From Lentisphaerae bacterium ADurb.BinA184 (GTDB lineage Bacteria; Verrucomicrobiota; Lentisphaeria; Oligosphaerales; MVZH01): DNA of 55,420 bases. Where the stretch lies: NCBI GenBank assembly GCA_002068325.1, contig MVZH01000002.1, positions 1-55,420 on the forward strand, written 5' to 3'. The notes under the pieces are model-generated. The model made no database searches, had not been told where the DNA came from, and saw only the letters and a program-made list of their open reading frames with translations. Made by a program: the position numbers and the translations under genes. This document shows positions 11,359 through 44,440 of this stretch, piece by piece (within the stretch, counting starts at the first letter, position 1; the number at the start of each line of letters is the position of its first letter).

Positions 11359-11382
11359 GCGAGCCCGCGGAGTGCGGAAGGC

Positions 11383-11581
11383 GGAACTGGAAACCGAAAA
11401 CCGTAGGTCGTGGGTCGTAGCGGACCCCGCCGGTGATGCCGATCACCGATGACCCGTGGGGCGTGGAGCCGGCGGTCTCCGCCGGTAATGCCCGGAACCG
11501 GTGATCGGTGACCCGTGACCGGTGATGCCGGCAACGAGGCACGAAGGCACGACGGCACCGTCGATCGTGGGTCGTGTGGGC
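11383..11581. repeat. Mosaic of short heptamer tandem runs (period 7, changing unit sequence)
   Basis: The hand parse gives GGAACTG GAAACCG AAAACCG TAGGTCG TGGGTCG TAGCGGA, then GGTGATG CCGATCA CCGATGA CCCGTGG GGCGTGG. After the REP copy it continues CCGGTGA TCGGTGA CCCGTGA CCGGTGA ... CACGAAG GCACGAC ... TCGATCG TGGGTCG TGTGGGC. Confidence 0.7.
11464..11487 (+). repeat. REP-like hairpin element, copy 2
   Basis: TGGAGCCGGCGGTCTCCGCCGGTA is identical to 825-848. It continues ATGCCCGGAACCGG, as copy 3 does. Confidence 0.6.
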
Positions 11582-11756: not shown

Positions 11757-14700
11757 TCACGTCGCGAGCGCGAGGAGCCAGTCGCGGTGCACGGCGAAAC
11801 GGACGGTTTGGCGGCGGCCGCCGGCGGCGTCGGCGATGATCCATGAGCGGTCGGGCTGCACGGCGGTGAGACGCCAGTTGGCGGCTCCGACCGTCAGGCC
11901 GACGCGGGCGGCCTTGGCCGCGGCCTCCTTGGCCACCCAAAGCTGGAGGAGCGGCGCCGCGCCCTCGACCGATCCGGTTTCCGCGAGTTTCATCTCGACG
12001 GGCGTGGCAATCTGTCCCGGCTCGAAATGCGGAGTCCGCAAAAGGGGCTCGAGGTCAATGCCGACCGGGCCGGGGCCGACCGCCGCGGCGGCGGCATGCC
12101 CCGAGTGCGCCAGGCTCACGGCGAGGGGCGGATGCCACGCGTCCGCGGATGCGGCCAGAGTCACCGCGGGGGCGCCGTTGGCCTCGTTGAAAACGGTGAT
12201 TTCGACCGGGTGGGGAAGGTGCCGTCCCTCGCCGCGGCGGCGGAGGGCGTCCAGCATCGCGTTCTTGACCGCGAGGCGCCCGCACAGCCACTGCAGGCGA
12301 CGGACGGGCGTCGTTTTGGCCGGCGGCATCTCCGCCGACTCGCGGACGGACAGGAAGAGGCTGCGTACGTGGGCCGTGCCGAGGCTGGCGAGGTCGTCGG
12401 CGGCGCTGAGCCAGCAGGCGGCGACATCCTCCGGCTGCCCGGCGAAATGCACCGGGGTGGCCAGCCGCATCTGCGTGGGCTCGCGCAGCGAGGTCACCAG
12501 GGCGGCGGACTCGGAGAGGATGGCGAGGGTCCATCCCCGGCCGCGCGCCCAGACGTGGCCGTCCCCGTCCTGGATCTCGAGGTCGTAGGTCATCTCCTTG
12601 CCGGGTGTGAAAGACGTGCGTTCGCCGTAGACGGGCAGGAGGCGTCCCGGGGGTGGCGGGGGGCGGTAGAACTCGATGGCTTCCATGGCCATGGGCAGGG
12701 CGAGCCGGGGCGGGACGGCGGAGGCGTGCAGCCCGGCGGCCTGCCAGGCGCCGTCGAGGAGCACCGGGTCGGTCAGCAGTGCAGGTGCCGACCCCCGCGT
12801 GAAGAGTCCGTCGGCCGGCAGGGACCGCAGCTCGGCGCGGAAGGTCTCCGGCCCCGCGGTCACCATCCGGCAGAGGCTCTGCAGCAGGGGACCGTGGAAG
12901 AGAAGCCCGCCGGTGTAGATGTCCGGCGCCCGCAGTGGCGACGGCGAGTCGTCGGCGGGGCGGGCAAAACGCGGCGTCACGGTCAGGCGGTAGCGTTCGC
13001 CAAAGAGGCATTCGGCGCTGAAGGCAGACTGGCCGTCGCGCTGGATTTCGCCGGCGACAAGCGTGAGCCCGTCGGCGGTTTCGGCGGGGCGGACGCGGAG
13101 CGTGAGCATGATCTCGTCGCAGTCCTCGAACGCCAACAGCTTGAGGGCGCGCACGCGCCGGAAGCCGGTCAGCCCCTGTCCGCGGGCCAGGAAGGCGGCG
13201 GCCTCGGCCAGCATTTCGAGGGCGAATGCGGCGGGGACGGTGGCCAGGCACTGAGCCGGCGGCTTGTAGTCGTGGACGAGGGCGAAGGCGTGGTCAACGA
13301 AACAGGGGAAATCGGCGAGCCGCAACGGGCACGCGAACGAGACCCAGCCGTCGGGGGCGCGGCCGAGGCAGTGCGTGATGAAGGGCATCCACGGCGGCGA
13401 TGGCTCACGGGCGGCGGCGCGCCCGCCGTGCGCCGCGGAGGCTGTCGCGGTTCCGGCCGCGTCTCCCGGCCACGGCTGTCGGTGAAGCGGGATCAGGGCT
13501 TCCGGGCTGCGCCGCGAGGGCGCGGCGACGGGCACCGCGGTCTCAAGGAGTCCCGCCAGGTTCACGCGGCAGCCGTTGACAAAGAGCTCGGCCGCGGCGC
13601 GCTGCAACTGGGTCAGGGGGTGCACGCCGTCCAAGTCGAGGGCGACGAAGGTCGCCGGGGCGGTGGGGGCGGTCCGGCTGGCCGGTGCTGCATCGCCCAA
13701 GGGGGCGGGAGAGGCGTCTGGCGTCGGCCCGCGGCGGTCTGGCGTCACGTCGTCCACGGCGGTTGTGCTGAACGAGCCCAGCCCGCAGTGCAGGAACAGG
13801 CGCGTGCCCTGGTCGCGGACCGTGCGCAGCGTCTGCCAGACGCGGGCGGGCCGGATGAGGTTGTCCGCGGCGGTCTCGGCCAGCGCGTCTTCCTGCACGT
13901 CGAACGGCCTGCCCGTCACCGAAGAGACGACCGCAGGGGCGGCGGGGCGTGGGTGGACGTGGCGGGCCACGAGGGCGCGCAGCCGTTCACGCAGGGGCAT
14001 CATCAGGGCGCTGTGCATCGGCGGGTAGGGCAGCCGGAGCGCGACACCCGCGCCGGCGGCCCGGACGTCGGCGACGAAGGCGTCAATCGCCGCGGCCGGC
14101 CCGCCGAGGCAGAACGTGACCGGGCTGATGTAAAGGGTGATGCAGACCGCGGGATGCTGGTCGAGGATGGTTCCGAGCTGTGCCTCACGCCCCTGGAAGA
14201 CCGCCGTCGTGCCGAGTGTGGACAGGTGGTACTCGGCGGCGGCGACCGGCCAGAGGTCGGCGAGCACCTCCGGCAGATCCAGGTGTCCGGCGGCGCCGAG
14301 GGCGGGGAGGTCGCCGATGGACTGGCCGAGGAAGCTGTCCGGCTCGACGCCGAGGCGGCGCGTCAGGAGCCAGCCGACCCAGTCGGCCATGAGTACGGTC
14401 GGCGGCACGAGGCTGCGGCGGTCGGGCGGCAGGTTGTCGAAGCGTAGGTTCCCGCCGTCCGCCGGGGCGGCGAGCGAGAAGCGGGCGCGCAGGCCGGCGG
14501 CCAGCCCGGGGGGGGCCGTTTCGGGCGGGGCGAGCAGCAAGCTGGTCGGCAGCGGGTCGTCCGGGTTGTGGTCGCGTGGCTCCTGCCCGTCGAGGAAACG
14601 GCGGACTTCCGGGAAGAGCATGGCGTGTGTGAGCAGATGTTCGGGCAGGTCGCCTTCGAGTCCGGGGTAGCCCACGCCGGGGAAGACGGCCGTGAGCCGC

Positions 14701-16220
14701 GGCGGCGCGGGCGTTGCGTCCCAGCCGAGGAAGACGTCCGCAACGGGCGGGGCGTCCGCATCGAGGCTGGCCAGGGCCGCATCCAGCAACCCGCACGCGC
14801 TCCCTGGCGCGGCGACGATGGCGGCGCGCACGGCTAGGCCGCCGGCGCTGGCGGCGGCCGGTGCCTCCGCGGCCAGCGCCGCGAACTCTGCGGCCGGCGC
14901 AGGGGATCCAAGGCGCGCCTGTGCGGCCTGCAACTGTGTACGGAGCGCGGCACGCGAATCCGCCGCGAAGGCGAGCAGTTCGGTGGGGCGTTCCAGCCCC
15001 GGCGCGGCGGGCCGGGTCGTCTCGTCGAGTGCTGCCTGGAGGAGGGCGCCGCCGACGTGTCCGGACGGGCCGCAGGCGAGGACGGCGGCGGTGCGGACTC
15101 CGCAGGCCGGGGGTTTGAGCCAAGGCCTGGCGCGCCGGCTGGTGTAGAAGCGGCTGCGGCACAGGGCCTCGCCCGGGGGCGCGGAACCCGGGGTGGGCGG
15201 CAGGATGCGGCAGGCGAGGGCGCGCGCCGTCTTGATCAGCGCCGCCAGCCCGGCCGCGTTGAGGGTCCAGCCAACGACGGGGGTCAGGGAGCCAATCGCC
15301 GTCGTGGCGGCTTCCGTGGTGCGGCCGCCGTACGCGTCCTGCAAGTCGGCGAGAACCCTGTCGTCAAGCCCGGGTGACACCCCGCCGGCCACCTCGATGT
15401 AGTCGGGGCACGCGCCGGCCCCGGCCGCATCGAGCGCGGCCCGGATTCCACTCCCGGCGCCGTCGCCGGAAACTGCGGACTCCGCAGACCCGTCGCCGAC
15501 GCCGGTGACAAGGGCGTGCACAGACTCGCCGCCGGCCGCGACGGTGGCGTAGGGCGCGAGGACGACGGCGCCGCCGCCCTCGCCGGGCAGAACGCCGGGC
15601 CGCGCTTCGGCCAGAAACTCGGGAAACCCCTGTTCGCAGAGGACTCCGTCCCTCCGCAACCGATGCCACCAAGCGGGGAGAGCCGGGCCGCTGACCCCGG
15701 CTAGGATGACGTGCCCGGCCGCACCCGCGCGAAGCCGTTGCGCCGCCGCGCGCAGCAGCGGGGCCAGGGCCGCGCCTTCAGACAAAGAGAACACGCGGAC
15801 AGCCCCGCCGATGCCGAGGGGCGCGGCGACTCCGGCGCGGACTGCCTCGACAGCGCCGGCGTCGGCCTCCCCGTCGTGCTCGCCGGCGATGAGCAGATCC
15901 GTCTGCGCCAGGCGGGCGGGCGACTCGGCCCCGGCGTCGCAGAGGGCGCGGACAACCAAGTCGCGCAACAGGGCCAGGTGCGGGTGGGAGCCGTCGTCAT
16001 CGAGGACGGGGGTACGCGGGTGCAGCCGGCAGGGAGTGGTGAAGAAGCCGCCGGTCACAGCGGCCGCAGGCACCGCCCCGCCGGCGCGTTCCGGCGGCAA
16101 CGGCCCCAGGAAGCGACGGCCGTTGACCACGCCGCGCCAGAAGGCCTCGAGGTCATGGGCGCCGGGGAAGCAGGCGCTCATTCCCACGATGGCCAGCGCG
16201 TTGTCGTTGGGGTTGGACAC
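11757..16220 (-). CDS. PKS / PUFA-synthase-like subunit B: inactive KS (CLF-like), AT-like, PKS-type dehydratase, C-terminal 4'-phosphopantetheinyl transferase
   Basis: A 1487-aa ORF with a GTG start. The N-terminus MSNPNDNALAIVGMSACFPGAHDLEAFW is a KS N-terminal signature. Domain motifs are listed in the sub-features. There is no ACP, KR or active KS, so this subunit must work with the 2371-aa subunit A. Confidence 0.85.
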   Translation of the reverse strand: MSNPNDNALAIVGMSACFPGAHDLEAFWRGVVNGRRFLGPLPPERAGGAVPAAAVTGGFFTTPCRLHPRTPVLDDDGSHPHLALLRDLVVRALCDAGAESPARLAQTDLLIAGEHDGEADAGAVEAVRAGVAAPLGIGGAVRVFSLSEGAALAPLLRAAAQRLRAGAAGHVILAGVSGPALPAWWHRLRRDGVLCEQGFPEFLAEARPGVLPGEGGGAVVLAPYATVAAGGESVHALVTGVGDGSAESAVSGDGAGSGIRAALDAAGAGACPDYIEVAGGVSPGLDDRVLADLQDAYGGRTTEAATTAIGSLTPVVGWTLNAAGLAALIKTARALACRILPPTPGSAPPGEALCRSRFYTSRRARPWLKPPACGVRTAAVLACGPSGHVGGALLQAALDETTRPAAPGLERPTELLAFAADSRAALRTQLQAAQARLGSPAPAAEFAALAAEAPAAASAGGLAVRAAIVAAPGSACGLLDAALASLDADAPPVADVFLGWDATPAPPRLTAVFPGVGYPGLEGDLPEHLLTHAMLFPEVRRFLDGQEPRDHNPDDPLPTSLLLAPPETAPPGLAAGLRARFSLAAPADGGNLRFDNLPPDRRSLVPPTVLMADWVGWLLTRRLGVEPDSFLGQSIGDLPALGAAGHLDLPEVLADLWPVAAAEYHLSTLGTTAVFQGREAQLGTILDQHPAVCITLYISPVTFCLGGPAAAIDAFVADVRAAGAGVALRLPYPPMHSALMMPLRERLRALVARHVHPRPAAPAVVSSVTGRPFDVQEDALAETAADNLIRPARVWQTLRTVRDQGTRLFLHCGLGSFSTTAVDDVTPDRRGPTPDASPAPLGDAAPASRTAPTAPATFVALDLDGVHPLTQLQRAAAELFVNGCRVNLAGLLETAVPVAAPSRRSPEALIPLHRQPWPGDAAGTATASAAHGGRAAAREPSPPWMPFITHCLGRAPDGWVSFACPLRLADFPCFVDHAFALVHDYKPPAQCLATVPAAFALEMLAEAAAFLARGQGLTGFRRVRALKLLAFEDCDEIMLTLRVRPAETADGLTLVAGEIQRDGQSAFSAECLFGERYRLTVTPRFARPADDSPSPLRAPDIYTGGLLFHGPLLQSLCRMVTAGPETFRAELRSLPADGLFTRGSAPALLTDPVLLDGAWQAAGLHASAVPPRLALPMAMEAIEFYRPPPPPGRLLPVYGERTSFTPGKEMTYDLEIQDGDGHVWARGRGWTLAILSESAALVTSLREPTQMRLATPVHFAGQPEDVAACWLSAADDLASLGTAHVRSLFLSVRESAEMPPAKTTPVRRLQWLCGRLAVKNAMLDALRRRGEGRHLPHPVEITVFNEANGAPAVTLAASADAWHPPLAVSLAHSGHAAAAAVGPGPVGIDLEPLLRTPHFEPGQIATPVEMKLAETGSVEGAAPLLQLWVAKEAAAKAARVGLTVGAANWRLTAVQPDRSWIIADAAGGRRQTVRFAVHRDWLLALAT
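11760..12323 (-). other. Integrated Sfp/AcpS-type 4'-phosphopantetheinyl transferase domain
   Basis: PVGIDLEPL is present (Asp1389 codon checked at 12054-12056), and LQLWVAKEAAAKA matches W-x-x-KEA-x-x-K. These are the two hallmark PPTase motifs. Confidence 0.7.
12471..13394 (-). other. PKS-type (double hot-dog) dehydratase domain
   Basis: LADFPCFVDHAFALVHDY...VPAAFALEM fits the H-x3-G/A-x4-P type motif; the His977 codon was checked at 13290-13292. The downstream LLTDPVLLDGAWQAAG fits the D-x3-Q motif. Confidence 0.6.
13776..14708 (-). other. Acyltransferase-like domain with variant nucleophile elbow GQSIG
   Basis: LTAVFPGVGYPG aligns with the FPGQGSQ start. FLGQSIGDLPALGAAG has Ser634, whose TCC codon was checked at 14319-14321. 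PYPPMHSALM aligns with the AFHS motif. No Arg was seen at the usual malonyl-carboxylate position. Confidence 0.5.
15036..16199 (-). other. KS-like domain lacking the Cys-His-His triad (chain-length-factor-like)
   Basis: At the position of the D-x-ACSS motif the sequence is VFSLSEGAALAPLL (no Cys). The EAHGTGT position reads YIEVAGGVSPG (no His). The GS-x-K-x-x-x-GH position reads IGSLTPVVGWTLNAAG (His replaced by Trp). Confidence 0.65.
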
Positions 16221-16293
16221 GGAACTGCCTGCCTCTGAGGTGCCTGCAAAACTCCCGCAAGCGCCGGTTTCATGTGTCAGGGTTCAGCACTTG

Positions 16294-16426
16294 ACGTTCG
16301 ACGTTCTGCGTTGGGCGTTCTGCGTTCTGCGTTCGGCGTTGAGCGTTCTGCGTTGAGCGTTCTGCGTTCGCCGTTCTGCGTTCTGCGTTCGCCGTTGGGC
16401 GCTCGCCGTTTGTCGTTCGTCGTTCA
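16294..16426. repeat. Heptamer tandem array, 19 units of CGTTCNN type (left arm)
   Basis: The hand parse is ACGTTCG ACGTTCT GCGTTGG GCGTTCT GCGTTCT GCGTTCG GCGTTGA GCGTTCT GCGTTGA GCGTTCT GCGTTCG CCGTTCT GCGTTCT GCGTTCG CCGTTGG GCGCTCG CCGTTTG TCGTTCG TCGTTCA. CAGGGTTCAG precedes it at 16278-16287. The array lies between the res stop (16563) and the subunit B start (16220). Confidence 0.9.
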
Positions 16427-16562
16427 TCTGGCCGCGAGGAATGAGTTCGCCCTGGCTGCGGACACCCAGGCCCAGTTCGAGCCGCACGTCTCCCGGCTCC
16501 GGCGTTGCCGGCGCTGCCGGGGATGTGTTCGCGGCCCGCGCCTGGGCCGGCCTGTTTGGGGG

Positions 16563-19229
16563 TCAGGCATCCCTGATAGCCGTTGTGATGGCGGAAAAGC
16601 CCCGCTCCGTCGGCATCACGAACAGGCAACGGCCGCCGCTGCGGGAGGCCCACACCGCGCCGACCGCCCGCTTCTCCTCGGCGTCGGTCCACAGGTGCGC
16701 GCCCTTGTACTCCACCACGAGAGAGCGGCCGTCCGTCAGCCGGCAGACGAAGTCGGGGTAAAACCAGTCCTTGGAAGTCTGCAGCCGGAACGACGTCGCC
16801 TTGCGCGCGAGGTTGCGCACCCAGAACTCCACCTCCGGGATCCCGTCGAGGAACTGCGCGCACTTGAACTCCTCCGTGGTGTTTCCGCCCGACGTGAGTT
16901 CCGCCAGCTCGCCCGGCTTCGGCCCGAAGTAGTGTTTCTTGAACTGGAAGCTCCCCTCGAACAGCCAGCTCGGCTCGTAGCTCATGGTTCGGAAGTTGAT
17001 GACCTTCTCGTCGCTGACCGCCAGGGGCGTGCCCGGGAGCAGGAACGCCTGGAACGCCGTGGCCCTCTCGGTCTCCCGGTGCTCCTGGATGCGGGCCTCG
17101 ACCTCGTCGCGCAGCCGGAACCGGTCGAGCGCCAGCAGGCCCACGTCCTCGATGCCGTGCCTCGCCATCAGTCCCCGGACGGCGTTCCGCAGGAAGGCCG
17201 CAGACTCACCGGCCGGGATGTCCCGGTGGTCGATGCGCTTGTCGAGCCAGGCGACGAGTCCCTCCAGCGTACACCCGCCAGTCGCCCCCAGCGCCAGCAC
17301 CTGCTGGTGCAGCCTGGCGACGAAATCGGCGTCCGGCACCTCCCGGAGCATGCTGGTCTGCACTTCCCCCTTCGTGCCGACGTCTACCAGGCCGGCGTAG
17401 CCCGCGGGCCGTTTCCGCGGATCGTAGTCTGCCCGGAGCGACGCGTCCTTGGTGCCGAGCCGCCACGGGTGTTCGAGGAGGAAGGTGCTTTCGAACTCGA
17501 ACAGGCCCCCCCCTTCGCGCACGCACAGGACCGGCACGGGGAAGTCGACCTTCCGTTCGAAGGGGGACGGCGCGCGCGTCGCGCCCGTGCCGCCGAACAC
17601 CCTCTCGGCCTCGCGCATGACGGCGACCGCCTCCTCGACCTTGCCCTTGCCGTCCTGCGACCTCACGCAGCTCGCCAGCTTCGCGGTCTCCGCCTGATCC
17701 AGCGGCACGAGCACCGTGATCTCGCCCGTCGCCGCGTCGACCTGCACCTTCCCGGCCAGCCCCGGCACCTGCGCCTGGGCCGCCGCCGCGTCGATGTCCG
17801 CCGGGGCGAGCCGCACCGTCCGCGGCTGGGCGCCGAGGGTCGGGGTGTTCGGCGGGATGGGGATGATGATGCGGGCGGCCTCGGCCGCCGTGAAGCCGTT
17901 GCTCTCCAGCGCGTCGCGCAGCTCCGCCAGGACCTCGCCAAGCGACGGGGAGACGGAGAAGACGTAGGAGCAGTTCAGGTCGGGGTGCCGCTTCGCCCGC
18001 GCGCCGGGGAGCCGCAGGACGCGCCCGACGATCTGCTCGATGGCCGTGGCCGACCGCGTCTCCCGCAGGCTGCAGAGCACGTAGGCGAAGGGGCAGTCCC
18101 AGCCCTCGCGCAGTTTCTGCACGGTGATGATGAAGCGCACGGGGGATTTCGACGAGGCGAGGTCCTCCGCGCCGGGCAGCTCGTCGAGGTTGCCGACGGA
18201 GATCTTCACCTCGTCCTTCGCGATGCCGAACTCGGCCACCAGCCGCTCGCGCAGGGGTTCGCACGCGTCCACCCGCTCTGCCTGGAGCAGCAGGACCGGC
18301 CGCAGGTACTCGGCGGTCGCCTGCGCCTCCGCCGCCGCGAGCCGCTCGAGGTCGCCCCGCAGCGTGACGGCCTCGGAGAGCAACTGGTCGCGCTGGCTGG
18401 GGTGCCGCGCAATGACGCGCAACGGCAGCTTGACCATGTCCGCCGCCTTCAGCTCCGCGGCCGAGACGTGGTGCAGCACGTTCGACGGGTTCTTGCTCCG
18501 CGCCGGCGTCGCCGTGAACTCGACGATGCACGACGGCTGCACGCTGCCGAGGGTGGCAAAGCTCAGGTCGGTGCGCGCGTTGTGGGCTTCGTCGACGATG
18601 ACGATCGGGCGGCGCAGCCGGAGCATGTTCACCAGCGACGGCTTCGGCTTACCGTCCACGCCGGGCAGCAGCTCGGCGAGCACGTTGAGCAGGTGCTCCG
18701 CGAACGCGCCGTTCTGGTCGTAGACTTTGCGCCCGGTCGTGTCCTCGACGCGGAAGCACTGGATCGTGGACACGATGACCACCGTCTGCCCTTCCGCGGT
18801 GGCGCGCGACAGCCGCAGAGCCTCCTCGATCGTCACGACCTCGACGGCGCCGCACGCCAGTTCCAGGGCGCGCCGGTAGGCGTGACGCGGGTCGCGTAGC
18901 GCCTCGGCGGTCTGGTTGAGGATGGTGTTGCTCGGCACCAGCCACAGCACCACGGCCCGCTCCGCGTGCAGCAGGTCCTGCATCGCGATGCCGGCGGCGT
19001 GGCAGGCGAGCAGCGTCTTGCCGCCGCCGGTCGGAACGCGCAGGCAGACGTAGGGCATCCCCGGCGTCAGCCCCGCCATGTGGACGGGGATGTACGGCAC
19101 GGGCTGGCGCCCGTTGCGCAGTTGCACTGCTTGGAAGGCCGCGTCGGGCCGTCCGTCCTTGGCGCACTGGCGGAAGAAGTCGGACAGCGAGCCGAGCACG
19201 CGCGTCTGGTAATCCTTGAGCGTGATCAT
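16563..19229 (-). CDS. res: Type III restriction enzyme, Res subunit (SF2 helicase plus PD-(D/E)XK nuclease)
   Basis: RVPTGGGKTLLA is the Walker A / motif I and IVIVDEAHNA is the DEAH box. The C-terminal YPDFVCRLTDGRSLVVEYKG is a PD...E-x-K nuclease motif. The start overlaps the mod stop by 4 nt (ATGA). Confidence 0.85.
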   Translation of the reverse strand: MITLKDYQTRVLGSLSDFFRQCAKDGRPDAAFQAVQLRNGRQPVPYIPVHMAGLTPGMPYVCLRVPTGGGKTLLACHAAGIAMQDLLHAERAVVLWLVPSNTILNQTAEALRDPRHAYRRALELACGAVEVVTIEEALRLSRATAEGQTVVIVSTIQCFRVEDTTGRKVYDQNGAFAEHLLNVLAELLPGVDGKPKPSLVNMLRLRRPIVIVDEAHNARTDLSFATLGSVQPSCIVEFTATPARSKNPSNVLHHVSAAELKAADMVKLPLRVIARHPSQRDQLLSEAVTLRGDLERLAAAEAQATAEYLRPVLLLQAERVDACEPLRERLVAEFGIAKDEVKISVGNLDELPGAEDLASSKSPVRFIITVQKLREGWDCPFAYVLCSLRETRSATAIEQIVGRVLRLPGARAKRHPDLNCSYVFSVSPSLGEVLAELRDALESNGFTAAEAARIIIPIPPNTPTLGAQPRTVRLAPADIDAAAAQAQVPGLAGKVQVDAATGEITVLVPLDQAETAKLASCVRSQDGKGKVEEAVAVMREAERVFGGTGATRAPSPFERKVDFPVPVLCVREGGGLFEFESTFLLEHPWRLGTKDASLRADYDPRKRPAGYAGLVDVGTKGEVQTSMLREVPDADFVARLHQQVLALGATGGCTLEGLVAWLDKRIDHRDIPAGESAAFLRNAVRGLMARHGIEDVGLLALDRFRLRDEVEARIQEHRETERATAFQAFLLPGTPLAVSDEKVINFRTMSYEPSWLFEGSFQFKKHYFGPKPGELAELTSGGNTTEEFKCAQFLDGIPEVEFWVRNLARKATSFRLQTSKDWFYPDFVCRLTDGRSLVVEYKGAHLWTDAEEKRAVGAVWASRSGGRCLFVMPTERGFSAITTAIRDA

Positions 19230-20890
19230 GTCACCCTGATCTCGTAAGGGGTTTGCCGGACGACGATGCGCTCCGCCTGCAGACGGTCAGGCCCGAGGAG
19301 GCAGCCGGCGCAGTAGATCACCTTCTGTCCGTCGAATGGCGGAAGCTGGGCCAGCACGGCGCGGGTCAGGACGTTGCCGCCGGTGGCGCTCTTGTCGCCG
19401 AGGATGCCGTTGTAGAGCAGGTAGACGCCGACGCCCCGGCACTCCCCGAGGAAGGCGGATGTCGTGACGCGTTCCCGCGGCAACGGCTCGCCCGTTTCGC
19501 TGAAGAAGACGTGCCGCGCGAGGTCGGCAAAGGAAACGGTCTCGCGAATCCTGCCCCCCTCGTCGAACAGCGGCTCGCCCAGTTCGCAGAAGCGGAAACC
19601 ACCACCCAGACCAGGCACAGCCTCACCTTTCACACGCGAGTAGCCCTGTGCCACCCGGCGCACGCGCTCTGCCGTCACCTCGCGCGCAATCTTTGACTCC
19701 ATCTCCACGAGGATGAACCTGCGCTTGCCACCATCTTGCTGGTTGAGCTTCAGGACTGCATGCCCTGTGGTGCCGGAACCGGCAAAGGAATCGAGGACCA
19801 AGTCATCCGAGCGACTGGCTGCCTGGATTAGCGAGGCGACTAGCGATATGGGCTTGGGGTAGGCAAACACCTTGGTTCCGAAAATCTCTTGCAGCGCTTT
19901 CCCCCCCTCCTGATTCATGCCTGAACCCAGAATCGTCAAGTCCCACTCTGCGGCATCTTCGGCTGCACCTTGAAGCGCATTCACACTCTCGACCCAACTT
20001 GACACAGGTTTCGGCTTGGCAGTGTCAGGGTCGTAGTAGGTCTTGTAGCGAGGCCGCTCCATGCGTCGCTCCGGGAAATCGTCGGGCCAGATGACCAACT
20101 CCTTCGCAATCACCTCTTGCATGGTCTGTGGGAAGAAGCGCCACACGCGTTCCGGGTTCGGCTGGTACACCTTCCCTGTGCGTGGATTGGTGATGGGGAA
20201 GAACTGGTTCGGCCGTGCTTCTCGCCCCATGCCGACTGTCAGGTCCGTGCTGGCATACCTCCCCCGCGCATCAACAAGCGGATACGATTCGACGCCCTTC
20301 TCCAAGCCGTACAGCAGGGCACTTCCCGCCTCCAACGCGTAGCACATCACGTACTCGTGGTCGATTGACAGTGGGGTCCCCCGCATGGCGCTTGAGCTGC
20401 GCCGTTTCCAGACAAGCGTCCCCAGGGCATTCTCTCTGCCGAAGATCTCGTCGAGAACAAGACGGAGTGCACCCTCTTCCGTTTCGTCCATGCTGACGAA
20501 AAGGACCCCCTCACGTCGGAGGAAGAGGCGCAGCAGCGCCAATCGAGGGTACATCATGCACAGCCACTTGTCGTGGCGGGAAAGGTCCTCGCCCTCCCTG
20601 CCGACAACCTTGCCAAGCCAGTCCCGAATGAGCGGGCTGTTGACATTGTCGTTGTATACCCAGCTCTCGTCACCTGTGTTGTAGGGCGGGTCGATGTAGA
20701 TGCACTTCACCTGGCCGGCGTAGTAGGGCAGCAGAGCCTTGAGCGCGACGAGGTTGTCGCCCTGGACGATCAGGTTGCCGCTGCCCGGGTCGCCGTACCC
20801 GAGTTCGGGCACGTCCTTGAGCAGGCGAAAAGGCACCTGCTGGTGGTGGTTGACCACCGCTTCCTTTCCGATCCAGTTCAGCGTCGGCAT
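19226..20890 (-). CDS. mod: Type III DNA methyltransferase, Mod subunit (beta-class N6A/N4C MTase)
   Basis: Motif IV, IYIDPPYN (DPPY at 20681-20692), precedes motif I, LDSFAGSGTTGHA (about 19769-19795). That order is typical of Type III Mod. The gene sits upstream of res and is translationally coupled to it. Confidence 0.85.
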   Translation of the reverse strand: MPTLNWIGKEAVVNHHQQVPFRLLKDVPELGYGDPGSGNLIVQGDNLVALKALLPYYAGQVKCIYIDPPYNTGDESWVYNDNVNSPLIRDWLGKVVGREGEDLSRHDKWLCMMYPRLALLRLFLRREGVLFVSMDETEEGALRLVLDEIFGRENALGTLVWKRRSSSAMRGTPLSIDHEYVMCYALEAGSALLYGLEKGVESYPLVDARGRYASTDLTVGMGREARPNQFFPITNPRTGKVYQPNPERVWRFFPQTMQEVIAKELVIWPDDFPERRMERPRYKTYYDPDTAKPKPVSSWVESVNALQGAAEDAAEWDLTILGSGMNQEGGKALQEIFGTKVFAYPKPISLVASLIQAASRSDDLVLDSFAGSGTTGHAVLKLNQQDGGKRRFILVEMESKIAREVTAERVRRVAQGYSRVKGEAVPGLGGGFRFCELGEPLFDEGGRIRETVSFADLARHVFFSETGEPLPRERVTTSAFLGECRGVGVYLLYNGILGDKSATGGNVLTRAVLAQLPPFDGQKVIYCAGCLLGPDRLQAERIVVRQTPYEIRVT

Positions 20891-21225
20891 GTGTACTGTC
20901 TCTATTTCTGCAACCAGTCAAACCTGATCCTGTCCTGTCAGCGAAACGACGAGAGAACAGTGCCCAGCAAAATGTCGGTGGCCGCCTCGTCACGACTCAG
21001 AGCCAACGGTCCACCCCTGGAAACGCACGGCTCGACGCCTTGTGGCTCAGCCCTGCGCAAACGCAACACTGGTAAAATGGCGTGCGAAGGCGGTTTTCCC
21101 AGCGCGGGCGGGCCTCTCGTGGATCAGAGTTTGACAGGCGTGCGGGCCCACGGCTGTATCTCAAGACGAGTGAATGGTTGCGTGCGTCGAGAACCCCGGC
21201 GCGGCCGGGCAAGACGGGGCAAAAG

Positions 21226-21435
21226 AGGAACGGCGAACGCAGAACGCAGAACGGCGAACGCCCAACGCCGAACGCCGAACGCAGAACGCAGAACGGCGAA
21301 CGCCCAACGCCGAACGCCGAACGCAGAACGCCGAACGAAGAACGCAGAACGCAGAACGCCGAACGCAGAACGCCGAACGAAGAACGCAGAACGGCGAGCG
21401 ACGGACGCCGAGCGACGAACGGCTAACGCCGGACG
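21226..21435. repeat. Heptamer tandem array, 30 units of NNGAACG type (right arm, inverted relative to 16294-16426)
   Basis: The parse runs AGGAACG GCGAACG CAGAACG CAGAACG GCGAACG CCCAACG CCGAACG CCGAACG and so on. The 42-bp block at 21240-21281 is exactly duplicated at 21282-21323. The array overlaps the last codons and the stop (21423-21425) of the four-helix-bundle gene. Confidence 0.9.
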
Positions 21436-21866
21436 TCGCAAGGGGGAGAGTCGTGGCAGTCGTACAGCCCGCGCTCTTCCTTGGCCAGCTTGGCGGAGGC
21501 GGTGCGGATGCTACTCTTGAAGATGCGGATCAAGGCATCCGTTTCCTGCAACAGCGGCTCGACGGTAGACGGTGGCTCAACCAGCGGCACCCGCGCGACC
21601 AGGCCCAGTGCCCGGAGCGATTCGCGCAGTTCCTTGAGGCAGATTCCGAGCTTGTGTACGAAGTCGGCGCGAGATTCAGCCGCCTCCGCCTCACCGTGGT
21701 TGAAGTAGGGGCTCGTGCCGCACCGGAGGAGCTGTCCACCGACATGGTTGCCAGCCCGGGTCTTGACGAGCTTTTCGGTCAGGTCAATGATGGCCGCCGA
21801 GTACTCCAAGAGCCGCTCCTCCAAATCCCAGGTTCTGCCGCCACTGTGCCCTCGTGTGCCCTGCAT
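21423..21866 (-). CDS. Four-helix-bundle protein (23S rRNA intervening-sequence protein / Avd family)
   Basis: A GAGGAG Shine-Dalgarno lies 11 nt upstream. ...LLEYSAAIIDLTEKL...GNHVGGQLLRCGTSPYFNHGEAEAAESRADFVHKLGICLKELRESLRAL... matches the characteristic pattern of PF05635/TIGR02436-type proteins (L-x-RS-x-TS...N-x-x-E...DF-x-x-KL-x-I-x-x-KE-x-x-E). Confidence 0.8.
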   Translation of the reverse strand: MQGTRGHSGGRTWDLEERLLEYSAAIIDLTEKLVKTRAGNHVGGQLLRCGTSPYFNHGEAEAAESRADFVHKLGICLKELRESLRALGLVARVPLVEPPSTVEPLLQETDALIRIFKSSIRTASAKLAKEERGLYDCHDSPPCDVRR

Positions 21867-21883
21867 CGCCCAGTGCTCCTCAC

Positions 21884-21914
21884 TTCGCCGTTCTGCGTTC
21901 AGGGTTCAGGCAGG
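21884..21914. repeat. Short heptamer run upstream of the four-helix-bundle gene (CGTTC type, then AGGGTTC type)
   Basis: TTCGCCGTTCTGCGTTC (21884-21900) is the perfect reverse complement of GAACGCAGAACGGCGAA at 21242-21258 and at 21284-21300. It is identical to 16367-16383. It is followed by AGGGTTCAGG (21901-21910). Confidence 0.85.
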
Positions 21915-21970
21915 AATCGAGTCCAGGCGTCAGCCCCGGAAACATCGTGCGGTTCCCGACTGCGGTTCTT

Positions 21971-22006
21971 CCTGAACCCTGACACCCTGAACCCTGGCAC
22001 CTGAGC
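21971..22006. repeat. Heptamer run CCTGAAC CCTGACA (C) CCTGAAC CCTGGCA CCTGAGC
   Basis: CCTGAACCCT (21971-21980) is the exact complement of AGGGTTCAGG (21901-21910). The same CAGGGTTCAG word sits at 16278-16287 next to the left array. Confidence 0.8.
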
Positions 22007-22039
22007 AGCTACCCTAGCACCCGAAACCTGTATGCTCCG

Positions 22040-22062
22040 CTTGCAGAACCGCGTTCTGCAAG
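22040..22062 (-). terminator. Perfect 10-bp stem / 3-nt loop hairpin 12 nt after the stop of PKS subunit A
   Basis: The sequence is CTTGCAGAAC-CGC-GTTCTGCAAG. No U-tract follows on the minus strand, so its status as an intrinsic terminator is uncertain. Confidence 0.4.
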
Positions 22063-22073
22063 CAGCTCGTCCA

Positions 22074-25000
22074 TCATTCCATCATTGCACGATCCTGTGG
22101 GACGCCTGTGATCTGCGACAGCTTGTCCAGTGTGGCGCCGATGACGACCTCGACCGGGCCGGAGCGGTCGCGCAGTTCGCGCAGCAGGGCCTGGGCGGCG
22201 GCGGCCAACGGCAGGGGCTCGATGCCGCGCGCCCGCATCAGGGCCTGCAACGGCGCGTGCACCATGCCGCCTGCGAGCGGGCCCCAGTTGATCGCCTTGA
22301 CCGTCACGTGCGGCCAGCGGCCGGCGAGGGCCTCGGCCAGCTTGTTGAGGCATTCGTTGGCGGCGGCGTAGTCGGCCTGGAAGGCGTTGCCGAAACGGGC
22401 CGCGGCCGATGAGAAGAACACCAGGCCGCGCAACGTCTCCGGCCGCAGGCTCCCGGCCAGGACCTGAGCCGGGATCAGTTTGCTCTCGATGACCTCGGCC
22501 AGCGCGTCGGGCGGGCGGGAGGTGAGAGGGCCGTCGTGGAGGATCCCGGCGGCATGGATGACCAGGTCCAGCCGTCCGAAGCGCGCGTACAGCGCGTCAA
22601 GGAACGCGGCCAGCCGGCCGGCGTCGCGGCCGTCCACGGCATGGTATTCGACGCGGGCCCCGGCTGCGGACAGCGCCGCGATCGTGTGTCGAATGTTACG
22701 CTGGCGGAGGAGGTTGCGGAGGATGGGTTCGACGTGCGCGGGCGGGGGGGCGGCGCCTGCGGCGCGGGCTTCGGCGATGAGGGCCTGGCGCAGGCTGGCC
22801 TCGTCCTCGATGCCGTGCGTCGCCGCGGGTTCCGGGCCGTCCGGGAGTGGGGTGCGGCCGGTGAGGATGAAGGTGGCGGGCGCCTGCGTGGCCAGCTCAG
22901 CCAGCATGGTGGCGGTGACGCCGTACGCCCCGCCGACGGCGAGCACGACGCTGTCCGCACGTACGTCGAGCCCGCGGTTGCCGGGGGTTGTCTCGGTGAG
23001 CACGGGGCGGACGAAGCGGTCCGTCCGCACCCCGGTCTCGGTTCCGGCGGCGTCGCGGGCGGCGGCGAGCAGGCCGATCAGGGTCTGCCCTGGCGGCGCG
23101 TCGGGCGCGACGTCTATGATCGCGGCTCGTGCCTCCGGCCACTCGCGGGCCAGGGACTTTGTGAAGCCCGCGGCGGCGGCCTGCGGCCAGCGGAGATCGG
23201 CGGCGCGGGAGAGGCCGAACGTGCCATCGAGGCCGGTGACGGTCAGCAGCGTGGCCGGACGGCCGGCGCGCCGCAGCTCCGGCTCGAAGACGGCGGCCAC
23301 GTTGAAGAGCGCGGCGGTCAGCTCCGTGGCCTGCCTGGCGGGCGGCGCCTCGCCGCCGGCCGGGGCGAAGACAAGGGGGAGCAGGTTGAGAAGGGTTCCG
23401 ACCGAGAACGCCGGATCGCTGCGCAGGGCCTCGGCGGCGGCGGTCAGCGAATCCCGCGAAAGGAGGTCCGCGGTCAGCCTGCGCTCGCCGACACGCCGGA
23501 ATGCCTCGCCATGGGAGAGCCGCCAGACGGGGACCGGGGCCGCACCGTCCTCGAAGCCGGGGAAGCGCGCCAGGCGCGGGGAGTCGCCGACGATCAGCAC
23601 GCCGCGCCCGTCGGCCCCGGCGATGATGGCATCCAGGGACTCGTCGCTGTCAAGCCGGACGGGCTGGGCGCTGAGCACTTGCCGTTGCACCGTGGCCGGC
23701 GGCGGGGCGGGCGAGGGCGAGAGGGCGGGGGTGTCGCGGCCGGCCGGTTTCGTCGCCTCCGGGGATGCCGGCGAGAGGGCGCGGCGGCGGTCGTAGTAGG
23801 CGACGATGTCGTTGAGGGTCTTCAGCTGCATGAAATCAACCAGGAGGTCCTCCTGCGGCCGGCCTTCGCCCAGCAGCACAGGGTGATAGGGTTTGAGCTG
23901 GGCGAACAGCTCCATCACCTTGATCGAATCAATGCCCAGCCCCGATTCGAGCGGCAGGCTGGGATCGAGCATGTCCTTCGGGTAGCCGGTGCGGGCGCTG
24001 AGCGCTTCGATCAGATCGGCGCGGAACGTCGCCGTCGGCGGCGTGGCGCCGGCGTCGGGCGTGGCGACGGGGACGGAAGGCGGCGGCGCGGTCGGGGCGG
24101 GCGCAGGCGCGGGGGCAACGGGCAACGGCGCGAGTTCCGGCGGCAGCGCGATCGCCGGCAGTTGCGGCACGGGCGCGGCCGGGAGCACGGCATCGCCGAG
24201 GACGCTGTCCAGCCCGGCCGGCGCGGCGGCTCTCGCGGGACGCCGGGAACCCGCTTCCGACCGCGCCGCGAAGTCGGCCCAGGGGACGGTGTCGGTGAGC
24301 GTGATGACGTGGCGGGTCGGGGTGGGGCGCCGGGCGGCCTCCTCGTCTTTGAGGAGCGTGGCCAGCGGCACGGGTTCGAGGCCGCGGTTGGCGAACCACG
24401 GCGACAGCTCGATCTCGGCCCCTTCGGCGACGAGCGCGGCCAGCAGCCGGGCCAGCCCGATGCGGCTGTCGGAGTCGCCGGTATCCAGCGGCAGGCAGCG
24501 GTGCGGGCGTCCGGCGAGGATCTCGTCAATCAACCGCGACAGGATGTTGCCGGGGCCGAGTTCGACGAACAGCCGCGCCCCGTCGTCATGCATGCGCTCG
24601 ATCATGGCCGCGAACGCGACGGGTTCGGTGATGTGCCGGCACAGCAGGTGCGCCATCCTGCCTGCCGACCCCTCGTACGGCGCGGCGGTGACATTGCTGT
24701 AGACCGGAATCGCGGGCCGCCCGAAGGCAAGGCCGGCCTGGAAGTCCGCCAACTGCCGCGCCGCGGGCCGCATGGCGGGACTGTGGAAGGCGCCGCTGAC
24801 GGCCAGGCGCACGCAACGTACACCCTGCGCCTCGAACCGCGCGCAGACCGCGGCCAGCCCCGCCTCCGGCCCCGAGACGACGACCTGCCGCGGCGCGTTG
24901 AAATTGGCGGCGCCGACACCGCCCCCGACCTCGGCAAGAACCGCGGCCACCGTCTCGCGGTCGGCCATGACCGCCGCCATGCCGCCCGGGATCGCGGCCG

Positions 25001-28000
25001 CCGCCGCCTGCATGACCCGGCCGCGGCGCGTGCACAGCCGGATCAGATCGTCGAAGGCCAGCACGCCCGCGGCGTGCAGCGCGGACAGCTCGCCGAAGCT
25101 GTGCCCGCCGGCCATCGCCGGGCGCAGGCCGTAACCGCGCAGGGTCTGCCAGGCCAGCGCCTCCGCCACCGCCAGCGCGGGCTGCGCGCAGTCGGCCGAC
25201 CGCAGGGTCTCGATGCGCTGCAGAATCTCCTGCGGGGTGAATCCGGCCGGAGGGTAGAGAACCGCCGACAGCGCGGTGGGAAGCTCGGTCGCGGCGGTGG
25301 CGTCGGCCGTCTCGATGAGGCGGACGGCGTCGCGGTTGCCGAGGGCGAGCTCGCGGAACATATCGATCCGCTGTGACCCCAGGCCGGGGAAGACGACCGC
25401 CACGCATGGCGGCGCGGCCAGTGCGCCCTCTCCCCAGGCGCAGCCTTCGACGCCGCCGGGATCTCCCGCGTCCAGGCGGGCGACGACCTCGGCCAGGCGG
25501 GTGCGCAGCGTCGCCACGTCCGGCGCCGTCAGGGCGAGTCGTACGGCGGCCGCCTTGCCCGAGGCGCGGCGGCGGTGCGACTCGTCAAGATGGCAGCTGG
25601 CGGCGAGGCGTTCGAGGCTGGGCAGAGCCTCGGCGGCGAGGGCGGCGTTCAGGGTTTCAAGCCGCTCCCGCAGCTCGCCCCGCGACGGCGCCTGCCAGGC
25701 GAACAGTTCGACCGGCGGCGCCGACAGGTTCGGCGGCGGCGGCTGGGCCGGGGAGGCGAACTCCTCAAGAACAAGGTGGTAGTTGGTGCCGCCGAAGCCG
25801 AAGGCGCTGACGCCGGCCCGGCGCGGGTGATCCCCGCGGCGGATCCACGGCCGCAACGCCGTGTTGATGTAGAAGTGGCTCCCTGCGGCCAGCCCGCGCG
25901 GGTTGGGGGTGCGCACGTTCACCGTCGGCGGGAGCACCTGTTGCGAGAGCGCCAGCGTGGCCTTGATCAGGCCCGCCAGGCCGGCCACCGTCTTGGTGTG
26001 CCCAAGGTTGGACTTGACCGAGCCGACCGCGCAACGCCCCGGCCCGCCCGCCGTGGCGGGGACAAACTCGTCCAGCGCCTGCAGCTCGATGCGGTCGCCG
26101 AGGCTGGTGCTGGTGGCGTGGGCCTCGATGAGCTCGACGGTGTCGGGGGCCAGGCCGGCGTCGTCGTACGCCCTCTGCAACGCCAGCTTGATGGATGCCT
26201 TGGCCGGGGCGGTCAGGCTGGCCTCGCGGCCGTCGCTGGAGAATCCCACCCCGCGGATGACGGCGTAGATGCGGTCGCCGTCGCGCACGGCGTCGTCGAG
26301 GCGTTTGAGGAGGACGGCGGCGGCGCCCTCGGCCAGCACGATGCCGTCGGCGCTCTCGTCGAACGGGCAGCTCACGTCGCGCGGGGAGAGGGCCTGGGTG
26401 CGCGAGAAGGCCGTGTAGGCGAACGGGCCCATGCCGCGGTCGACGCCGCCGACCAGGACGGCGTCGCTGGCGCCCGCCCGCAGGAGGGCCACGGCGTGCG
26501 CGAGGGCGGCCAGCGAGGAGGCGCAGGCCGCGTCAATGATGAGGTTCTCGCCGTGCAGGTCGAGCAGATTGGCGACGCGGCCGGCAGTCAGGTTGGGCAG
26601 GAAACCGGGGAAGCTGTCCTCGGTCCACTCCGGCAGGACGGCGCGGAAGGCCGCCAGGACCTGCTCACGGGCGCGCTCGCCGAGAGCCGTCTGCGACAGC
26701 AGGTGCGGCAGGCTGCTGCGGAGGCCGTAGCCGAGCCCGAGGTTGTCCTGGCCGGAATTGGTGAATACGGCCGAGACGCGGCTGCGCTCCAGGGGCCGCG
26801 AGCCGTAGCCGGCGTCTTCAAGGGCGCGCCGGGCCACCACCAGCGACAGCAGCTGCACCGTGCTGATGGCCTTGACGGCGACTGGCGGAATCCGGTACTC
26901 GACGGGATCGAAGACGACGGGGTCGAGGAAGCTGCCCTTGCGGCTGTAGATGTGTTCGGGGGCCTTGCGGTCGGGGTCATAGTAGAGGCTGGCGTCGAAC
27001 AGCTCGGCCGGGACGTCCCGGATGGCGTTGAAGCCCCGCTGGATGTTCTGCCAGTATTCGCGCGTGCCGGGTGACTGCGGGAAGAGGGCGCTCATGCCGA
27101 CGATGGCGATGGGGGCGGGTGGCGGGCGCGTCCGTGCGGCCGGGGGAGGGCGGGGCGACCGTCCCGCCCAGGCGTCAAGGCGCCCGGCCGATTCGGTGCA
27201 GAGGCCGTGATGCAGCTCGGCGAGCGTCAGCGGCGTGTCACGGAGGATCGCGGCCTGCCCGAGCATGAACAGTCCCTGGTCGCGCTGGATGTCGGGCGGG
27301 GCCGCAACCAGGGCGGCGGAGTCGTCGAGAAACCGTTGCGGCTCTTCGGCGCCCTCCTCGGCGGCGGCGCGGCGCACCCCCTTGGCGGCGAGGCGGAGCC
27401 GGCCGAGGGTGAGCTTTTCGAGGCGGAGGCGGGTTTCGCCGTCGCCGAGCCCGGCCTCGATGAGGCGTTGGCGGCTCTCATCGAACGCGTGGGCGAAGGG
27501 GGTGTCGGCGCAGCGCATTTCGTGTCCCGGGCCGGTGCACAGCAGCCGGGTACGGGTGCAGGCGAGGGCGGTCGCCTGGAACGATGCGGTCAGCGCGCCG
27601 GTCTTCACGCACTCGCGGGTGAAAAGGTATGGGGTTCCCAGCAGTAGTCCGACCTTGACCCCGCGTTCGGCCAGCGGGGCCGCCAGCACGGCCAGCATGG
27701 CGGCGGAGAGGCGGTCGTGGAGCCCGCCGGCGAAGAGGACTTCGAGGTCGGCGGCTGTGTGGTCGGGCAGCGCGGCGACGATGTCGAGGACGTGGCGCCA
27801 CAGCGGGAAGGCGAACAGGGGGCCGACATGGCCGCCGCACTCGCGGCCCTCAAAGACGAAGCGCCGGCAACCGGCGGCGAGGTGGTCGCGGAACAGCCCC
27901 GGTGTGGGCGCATGGAGGAAGGCTTTGATGCCAGCCCCCTCGAAGGCGGCGGCCTGATCGGGCCGGCCGCCGGCCAGGATGACGGCCCGCGGCTGTGCTT

Positions 28001-44203: not shown

Positions 44204-44245
44204 GGCCGATGGCAAATAGCAAATAGAAGATAGCAAATGGCGGCG
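44204..44245. repeat. Heptamer run GGCCGAT GGCAAAT AGCAAAT AGAAGAT AGCAAAT GGCGGCG (left arm)
   Basis: The hand parse shows an AT-rich island in GC-rich DNA. The units are reverse complements of units in 44441-44468. Confidence 0.85.
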
Positions 44246-44324
44246 GCGCCACGAGCACGATGAAAGCATGCCCGCAACCACCAGAGCCAGGGAGGGAGAC
44301 CAGCTGTCCGGCCGAAGGTCGGCA

Positions 44325-44398
44325 GGTGGAAGGAGGACGGAGGACGGTGGGACGGTGGGACGGTGGACGGTGGACGGTGGACGGTGGACGGTGGAGGG
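44325..44398. repeat. Central G-rich tandem run (GAGGACG x2, GTGGGACG x2, GTGGACG x4, GTGGAGG)
   Basis: Hand parse of ggaggacggaggacggtgggacggtgggacggtggacggtggacggtggacggtggacggtggagg. The period is 7, with two 8-nt units. Confidence 0.85.
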
Positions 44399-44440
44399 GG
44401 CCTAGGCGGATGTCTGCTCGCGCCTACCCCCCTTCCCGCC

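Follow-up and report, generated by a model that had tools for sequence, protein, structure and literature searches.

Tandem heptamer arrays enclose a four-helix-bundle gene beside a Type III restriction-modification operon between two polyketide synthase genes of Lentisphaerae bacterium ADurb.BinA184

What separates the two interdependent polyketide synthase (PKS) genes of Lentisphaerae bacterium ADurb.BinA184, and do the heptamer arrays found there belong to the restriction-modification (R-M) operon that they bracket? The window is the whole stretch of DNA analysed, 55,420 nucleotides of contig MVZH01000002.1, in which gene calls place PKS-A, a four-helix-bundle (4HB) gene, mod, res and PKS-B all on the minus strand (Table 1). 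The genes inside segment 16221–22073 are mod, res and the 4HB gene only, with no reverse transcriptase among them. We read this 5.85-kb spacer as probably two unrelated things: a heptamer-armed 4HB cassette and a horizontally acquired Type III mod-res operon. In the cassette, tandem heptamers (unit SAACGNN in the window) make up the two arms of an inverted repeat, and a PF05635/TIGR02436 gene occupies its loop. The cassette would have been inserted with the orientation of the host operon, and a heptamer hairpin (21886–22006) that lacks an open reading frame (ORF) adjoins it. The mod-res operon lies between the 3′ arm of the cassette and an additional, oppositely oriented array of this heptamer, the left array; the simplest explanations of the arrays on its two sides are that heptamer elements fill every gap between the genes here, or that mod-res landed within an array cluster.

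The product of the 4HB gene scores 63.6 bits against TIGR02436 (cut-off 24) and 30.0 bits against Pfam PF05635, slightly under the gathering score of 33.8, and its subfamily profile matches PDB entry 2RLD at 3.4e-17. Its AlphaFold2 model (pLDDT 87.5) comprises four helices (15–32, 37–61, 66–92 and 99–136), and the top Foldseek matches are 2RLD (TM 0.89 on target), 2GSC (Xcc0516; 0.83) and 4DWL. Each of the structural relatives 2RLD, 2GSC and 4DWL/8UB7 is an assembly of five chains. About 5000 database proteins are 60–77% identical to the query, many of them encoded on contigs of 0.5–1.5 kb, and the PF05635 family as a whole numbers 10,326 clusters at 50% identity. Family members are often multi-copy and occur within CRISPR, DISARM/BREX and methylase gene clusters; to our knowledge, a function is known for the Avd protein of diversity-generating retroelements (DGRs) alone. 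A scan of IMG/VR viral contigs found no member of the 4HB subfamily, so a phage vector is unsupported.

Twenty-six of these relatives were aligned, and the alignment was used to fetch 80 loci from species-representative genomes of Verrucomicrobiota, Lentisphaerota, Kiritimatiellia, Planctomycetota, Desulfobacterota, Nitrospinia and Chlamydiota (at least seven phyla, mostly contigs of metagenome-assembled genomes (MAGs)). Arrays were called in gene orientation, as at least four SAACNNN units within 300 nt upstream or an NNNGTTS array within 350 nt downstream. The upstream array is present at 73 of the 80 loci, the downstream array at 69 and both at 66; arrays of the opposite orientation occur at 4 loci upstream and 10 downstream, and the background is 52 such arrays per 318 kb. 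Tandem Repeats Finder (TRF) returned 330 rows of period 7 for these loci, versus at most 80 for any period outside the multiples of 7. Arms usually hold 5–6 units (mode 5), with GAACATC, GAACGTC and CAACATC the commonest. The cassette layout is thus conserved in this protein family across phyla. The window departs from it solely in the expansion of its 3′ arm, and arms of 15–30 units are found elsewhere at L015, L017, L018 and L065. The right array, which an initial annotation had considered as a possible end of a captured R-M cassette, is accounted for as a 4HB cassette arm together with 21886–21910, an arrangement shared by 66–73 of the 80 related loci.

The surroundings of the cassettes are varied. 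Among the 150 genes nearest to 75 cassettes, 147 Pfam families are represented, mainly from ordinary metabolic and transport operons, and no reverse transcriptase family is among the 25 commonest. R-M or defence genes are not enriched among the neighbours of these 75 cassettes, and an association with R-M or defence as a rule for this subfamily was rejected on the ordinary operons found there. The upstream neighbour is co-directional at 68 of 77 loci and the downstream neighbour at 56 of 75, across gaps of ~100–140 nt, so a cassette placed between two co-directional PKS genes is typical for the family. Genes of a Bat aerotolerance-type operon recur among the 150 neighbours (VWA_2, 11; DUF58, 5; BatA, 4), which may point to an ancient insertion passed on vertically or to a favoured site. 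Alternating arrays form chains at L026, L052, L071 and L084. Two identical loci from Kiritimatiellia and Verrucomicrobia MAGs (L032/L033) pack at least 10 different heptamer arrays into 6 kb; the 4HB protein encoded there shares 54% identity with the query, and its flanks hold AATTGAG/AATTCAC-type units, not SAAC.

Searching the flanks of the 80 loci disclosed 48 further inverted heptamer pairs. Four of these, with gaps of 366–481 nt, contain a further PF05635 gene apiece, and each such gene has a heptamer of its own: GTGTCAG/CTGAAAC at L015, ATTTGTG/TCACAAA at L021, TGTCAGT/ACTGACC at L051 and TGAATAG/CACTAAT at L057. It follows from these loci that two 4HB paralogues in one genome keep different repeats. 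Roughly 40 other pairs have gaps of 10–130 nt without an ORF; ORF-less arm copies are scattered near cassettes. On finished plasmids of cultured organisms, heptamer arrays flank 8 of 8 inspected genes annotated as ‘four helix bundle protein’, 6 of them as simple inverted pairs. The units are AATTCAA/TTTTGAA in Nostoc flagelliforme, AAGTCGG/CCGACTT in N. punctiforme, AATCCCC, AATCGTA/ACGATTT in Planktothrix and ATTAGTG (15 copies)/TCACTAA in Bernardetia, and the plasmid genes of Gloeocapsa and Chlorohelix are likewise heptamer-flanked. Heptamer sequence is subfamily-specific among 4HB genes, and this holds even for paralogues that share a genome. Some plasmid copies lie within defence clusters, each between two genes (cas2 and cas1, drmD and pglX, DUF1156 and HEPN, or helicase and N6-methylase): L101 (Anabaena cylindrica pANACY.01), L103 (Planktothrix p1), L104 (Gloeocapsa) and L107 (Chlorohelix). 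Eighteen such 4HB genes have been counted in cas loci and taken as possible Cas-associated functions (PMC3936711).

A published catalogue provides a further case. In Xanthomonas campestris, Rehm et al. (PMC4692102) listed 186 GGGAATC arrays, mostly of four units, 70 of them as convergent inverted pairs. Repeat #15 in their supplement (X. campestris 622956–622983) is a four-unit array over the start codon of XCC0516 and sits between bccP (XCC0517) and XCC0516; a downstream arm is absent from the table. XCC0516 is the crystallised pentameric 4HB protein (2GSC), a connection that PMC4692102 does not make, and its cassette appears to be located in the accB region.

Our analysis raises the possibility, held tentatively and short of an even chance, that the 4HB protein recognises its own heptamer arrays. 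This is the most economical hypothesis because the heptamer is subfamily-specific and conserved across phyla (among proteins of ~55–75% identity), because heptamers are distinct between paralogues, and because the structural relatives are pentamers, including the nucleic-acid-binding Avd. Gene and arrays would then form a self-recognising unit, with a logic comparable to that of a RAYT gene (REP-associated tyrosine transposase) and its repetitive extragenic palindromic (REP)/REPIN repeats. The coincidence of 5–6 modal units per arm with pentameric relatives is suggestive, not evidence: the Xanthomonas arrays mostly have four units. A wider proposal, which we regard as doubtful, is that PF05635/TIGR02436 proteins bind heptamer arrays in a sequence-specific manner, perhaps one heptamer to each pentamer subunit, and that each subfamily and its cognate heptamer form a self-recognising, possibly self-propagating system, which would explain many intergenic heptamers.

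Constraint on the arms bears on how the cassette might act. Watson–Crick complementarity between arms is 85% within a cassette versus 75% between loci (Mann–Whitney p = 8e-17), and in 63 of 66 minimum-free-energy (MFE) folds of whole ~500-nt modules the arms are paired along 20 bp or more. At L058 and L090 (Verrucomicrobiota MAGs) the cassette occupies an orthologous site with five-unit arms kept in both, and a C↔G exchange at heptamer position 1 in both arms constitutes a compensatory, array-wide change. The two arms of a cassette co-evolve. Flanking and cassette proteins of this pair are equally diverged (~71–72% identity), which indicates, for at least some cassettes, a long history of vertical inheritance and not recent mobility. 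On the sense strand, G·U and A·C mismatches are balanced (98 versus 97) and sense and antisense duplex energies are equal; arm complementarity is thus maintained, though not demonstrably for the sense RNA.

RNase III excises 23S rRNA intervening sequences (IVSs), and an RNA cassette of this type is the main rival explanation. Its paired arms would be cut by RNase III, freeing the 4HB mRNA and separating the flanking cistrons. The extensive pairing of the arms favours it, as does the co-orientation with an upstream gene some 100 nt away, which fits read-through transcription. The founding members of PF05635 are located in rRNA intervening sequences, and PMC12721329 describes a Haemophilus influenzae heptanucleotide repeat locus that depends on an RNase III-targeted element in the 5′ untranslated region. 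Pairing alone, however, leaves the SAAC core shared across phyla and the 7-nt periodicity unexplained, and the window arms are very unequal (3 versus 30 units). Because the G·U/A·C asymmetry is missing, RNase III processing is not our lead explanation, and we consider it unlikely; this model and array recognition by the 4HB protein are not mutually exclusive.

The second component of the spacer under the two-part reading is, from its predicted products, a complete Type III R-M operon. Mod matches the PADLOC MTase_III profile PDLC03644 over residues 1–553 of 554 (E = 4.5e-171) and Res the REase_III profile PDLC03650 over residues 1–872 of 888 (E = 5.3e-127); mod precedes res with a 4-nt overlap (19226–19229). 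Mod homologues reach 82% identity in Verrucomicrobia MAGs and 63–71% in Phycisphaerae, Deltaproteobacteria, Gemmatimonadota and Armatimonadetes, in contrast to the 26% of the best PKS-B relative. This upholds the suggestion that mod-res is a module of foreign type, since its close homologues (at most 82% identical at the amino-acid level) occur in unrelated contexts and other phyla. Three related mod-res operons also have unrelated surroundings, and no period-7 arrays were found at any of the three. Nucleotide homology to them (70–73%) runs exactly from 20891 to 16588, that is, over the two ORFs alone, and the 335-nt spacer upstream of mod has no homology to their flanks. Since relatives lack arrays and homology stops at the ORF ends, the arrays are not part of a mobile R-M unit, and their earlier assignment to the R-M cassette falls. 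To judge from these comparisons, the arrays that bracket mod-res do not mark the termini of a mobile R-M unit. That the spacer joins a conserved heptamer-armed 4HB cassette and an ORF-less heptamer hairpin to an R-M operon acquired independently is well supported.

Base composition is less informative on timing. The GC content of the PKS genes is 0.72–0.78 versus 0.58–0.61 for central mod (19600–20800), the lowest-GC stretch of the region and presumably the target-recognition region. GC at third codon positions (GC3) is 0.94 in res, host-like, 0.78 in mod and 0.88–0.90 in the PKS genes, and mod is lower in GC than res in 3 of 3 relatives as well. The reported GC dip is real, yet no more than a modest sign of recent arrival: res has host-like GC3 and mod falls below res in the relatives too. 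Recent arrival from a low-GC donor was entertained and weakened on these grounds. The low-GC centre may instead record an exchange of the target-recognition region. Several Mod homologues (P0151, P0196 and P0212) align over just 80–85% of Mod at ~80% identity, which suggests a mosaic target-recognition region. At L095 (9778–10978), PDDEXK_3, an unassigned ORF and ORF6N are inserted between mod and res of a related Type III system.

Table 1. Features of the PKS-A to PKS-B region, in window coordinates
Feature	Positions	Strand	Description and source
PKS-A	22074–29189	−	ER-KS-AT-ACP-KR, PfaA-like; upstream partner gene; Pfam and TIGR02813 (880 bits)
Hairpin CTTGCAGAAC-CGC-GTTCTGCAAG	22040–22062	+	Just past the PKS-A stop; perfect 10-bp stem, 3-nt loop
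CCTGAAC-type heptamer array	21965–22006	+	TRF and RNA fold
Short opposite array CGTTCTG CGTTCAG GGTTCAG	21886–21910	+	Cassette 5′ arm; pattern match 21889–21907
4HB gene, 147 aa	21423–21866	−	PF05635/TIGR02436, ‘23S rRNA IVS protein’/Avd superfamily
Right array, ~30 NNGAACG units	21226–21435	+	3′ arm of the 4HB cassette; TRF and family pattern
Unique 335-nt spacer upstream of mod	20891–21225	−	Presumed leader/promoter region of mod
mod, Type III DNA methyltransferase	19226–20890	−	PADLOC MTase_III; Pfam N6_N4_Mtase
res, Type III restriction endonuclease/helicase	16563–19229	−	PADLOC REase_III; Pfam ResIII
Left array, ~19 CGTTCNN units	16294–16426	+	Minus (coding) strand reads (GAACGNN)19; TRF and pattern search
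Outer word GTGTCAGGGTTCAG	16274–16287	+	Exact reverse complement of 21972–21985
PKS-B	11757–16220	−	Degenerate KS, AT, DH, PPTase; downstream partner gene; Pfam

The arrays of the window were then defined individually. TRF reports the left array at 16295–16425 (period 7, 18.7 copies) and the right array at 21228–21430 (~29–30 units with a 42-nt super-period). The three-unit pattern GAACGNNGAACGNNGAACG, with at most one mismatch, has 37 matches versus 0.02 expected, every one within these arrays. On the coding strand the left array is of the same type as the cassette 5′ arm and has no ORF of its own; the 5′ arm itself reads as three GAACNNN units, GAACCCT-GAACGCA-GAACGGC (21910–21886), followed by the 4HB gene and then by (CGTTCNN)30, the right array, which covers the last codons of that ORF. 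The CCTGAAC-type array pairs with 21893–21910 over a 55-nt loop in the RNA fold, giving the ORF-less heptamer hairpin. The hairpin beyond the PKS-A stop carries one GCAGAAC/GTTCTGC unit per arm, and no T-run follows it. Gene order, both arrays, mirrored outer words, this hairpin and the GC dip were all recovered where the initial annotation had placed them, far above chance. A second ORF-less heptamer structure separates two minus-strand genes at 44212–44510: a (GGTGGAC)10 array has (GCAAATA)~4 on one side and the complementary (TATTTGC) on the other, a GCCGTCT-type run then follows, and the whole folds as a single long hairpin on either strand (−146 and −122 kcal/mol).

Left and right arrays are inverted repeats of 130–150 nt at ~80% complementarity, as had been proposed. 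The perfect words they were said to share were confirmed as well, at a different length: the longest is a 19-mer rather than a 17-mer (16365–16383, the reverse complement of 21242–21260 and of 21284–21302). This geometry, together with the perfect 14-nt outer words placed in mirror fashion around the whole insert and the array clusters of alternating orientation at other loci, is what speaks for the arrays as ends of a unit that captures or mobilises mod-res, or as mediators of a 4.8-kb inversion. We find either role improbable. The relatives of mod-res (70–82% identity) are array-free with homology ending at the ORFs, the right array is already explained as a cassette arm, and the neighbours of the 75 cassettes show no enrichment for R-M or defence. 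Gene calls and Pfam revealed no recombinase or invertase gene in or adjoining the segment; no transposase was identified either, with inverted arms present.

Seven independent assemblies show a single, fixed orientation. Same-species contigs were available from six or more samples, activated sludge among them, and every junction is reproduced in one orientation. Nine contigs cover junctions (L001, L002, L004, L008, L011, L098, L099, L100 and L109): those of PKS-A, 4HB gene, array, mod and res are found in L001, L002 and L004, mod-res in L100, and the res–array–PKS-B junction in L011, L098, L099 and L109 at 99.9–100% identity. The proposal of an invertible segment is not supported by these data, there being no adjoining recombinase, a perfect run of at most 19 nt and a single orientation in all junction contigs. 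Assemblies likewise show 16427–21225 in one orientation only, a result that describes assemblies and could leave minor subpopulations unseen.

Unit number varies in one instance. The right array is identical in L001 and L002 and shorter by exactly one 42-nt block in L004 (24 units), and L011, L098 and L099 have identical left array regions. Type III mod genes are classic phase-variable genes, and the arrays could be slippage-prone repeats serving mod-res expression as a contingency switch or rheostat, in the manner of a phasevarion, with the 4HB gene incidental. The array upstream of mod does differ by that block (24 versus 30 units) in one sample, and hmw expression in H. influenzae is under heptanucleotide repeat control (PMC12721329, PMC8262952). 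We nevertheless think this role most improbable: the arrays stop 335 nt before the mod start, a second array lies downstream of res, dozens of R-M-free loci have the same arrays around 4HB genes, the left array is invariant in four assemblies, and the 24-unit variant could be a collapse of short-read assembly. A chimeric join through the arrays that put mod-res between the PKS genes, suggested by short-read contigs that often stop within arrays (L003, L005, L006, L008 and L012), has a negligible chance of being correct, and misassembly is excluded because every junction recurs in independent assemblies.

Pfam gives the domain order of PKS-A as NMO(ER)-KS-AT-PP-binding-KR and finds in PKS-B a fragmentary KS (N-terminal domain matched at residues 8–45 only), AT, PS-DH and ACPS; the domain lists drawn up beforehand, in which the KS of PKS-B is a presumed inactive one, are in accord with this. 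A search for PKS-B homologues gave a best match merely 26% identical. In the only detectable, distant relative of the pair, there is a 4-bp overlap between the A-like and B-like genes, arrays are missing and mod-res is absent, which bears out the claim that unrelated DNA splits the two genes here. A metagenome scan with the PKS-B N-terminus yielded one contig, of the same species and collinear with the window, and PKS-B with its upstream 343-nt spacer is identical in L011, L098 and L099. An Rfam scan of the window detected no rRNA or other match, and a tRNA scan was likewise empty. A promoter scan found no sigma-70-like promoter on the minus strand, and terminator-like sites occur merely at chance level. 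The gap downstream of PKS-B (11380–11560) contains CGTAGGT (2.7 copies), ACCGGTG (4.1 copies) and an octamer run, and L011 carries the same run of short repeats.

Several observations weigh against a heptamer-armed cassette placed beside an independently acquired mod-res. The association of protein with repeat may have arisen because the gene is inherited along with its flanks, not through recognition. Evidence from isolates comprises the eight plasmid loci (L101–L108) and one literature table. In the window, the cassette has atypical arms (3 units upstream, ~30 downstream), the left array has no partner array further left, and the left and right arrays with the 14-nt outer words form a nested mirror structure round the whole insert. 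The balance of G·U and A·C mismatches says nothing positive on mechanism. Neither the PKS-B homologue search nor the metagenome scan with its N-terminus found a close relative of this organism without either insert. Under the two-part reading the nested mirror symmetry is a by-product, and alone it shows neither capture nor inversion.

The combination has partial counterparts in known systems. ORF-containing 23S rRNA intervening sequences occur in Leptospira and others (Ralph & McClelland 1993, as cited in PMC3936711). They share with the cassette the family PF05635, a small ORF between inverted terminal repeats able to form a long stem (in the window, arms 21886–21910 and 21226–21435) and carriage inside a host transcript; unlike them, the window cassette lies between protein genes (PKS-A and mod) with no rRNA, and its arms are tandem heptamers. 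REP/REPIN–RAYT systems resemble it in that inverted copies of a gene's own repeat lie on both sides of it, inverted doublets without a gene are scattered intergenically (21886–22006 and 44212–44510 in the window), and different gene subfamilies have different repeat sequences. The cassette gene, in contrast, encodes a four-helix bundle whereas RAYT is an HUH/Y1 transposase, and its repeats are 7-periodic arrays rather than single palindromes. Avd is the pentameric, nucleic-acid-binding accessory protein of DGRs. The 4HB protein has the same fold (Foldseek 4DWL, 8UB7; TM ~0.8 on target) but ~18% identity, and its gene has no adjoining reverse transcriptase or template/variable repeats. Compared with EcoP15I-like Type III R-M systems, mod-res has the same order, overlapping stop and start, and full-length profile matches, and is unusual in position only, inside a PKS pair and beside a cassette.

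Heptamers are the most over-represented simple-repeat class in many bacterial genomes (PMC4679880, PMC4692102). Over-represented intergenic examples include the cyanobacterial short tandemly repeated repetitive (STRR) sequences, GGGAATC in Xanthomonas and GGGGAYT in Nostoc (PMC4692102), and TAACTGA in Beggiatoaceae (PMC4679880). They are like the arrays described here in being intergenic and tandem, mostly of 4–6 units, often in convergent inverted pairs (70–75 in Xanthomonas) and variable in unit number; they are unlike them in that PMC4692102 and PMC4679880 draw no connection to a protein family, whereas here the arrays are tied to PF05635 genes. In the literature searched, we found no published link between heptamer arrays and 4HB genes.

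For ADurb.BinA184, ~5.9 kb with a restriction system comes between the paired PKS genes, so one cannot take it for granted that the interdependent subunits are co-expressed. The R-M insertion alone is ordinary. Heptamer cassettes are also a systematic cause of breaks in short-read assemblies. The tie between heptamers and 4HB genes, apparently undescribed in the searchable literature, offers a handle on both heptamer repeats and 4HB function. Cyanobacterial STRR repeats have been fingerprinting targets for decades; a consistent link between repeat and family gives both a testable hypothesis, namely that a pentamer binds a heptamer array with an effect on the host operon. If true, array binding would account for a large share of cyanobacterial STRR, Xanthomonas GGGAATC and the SAACRYY repeats of the Planctomycetes–Verrucomicrobia–Chlamydiae (PVC) group and Desulfobacterota, and would represent a second relationship of the RAYT–REPIN type, on an unrelated protein fold.

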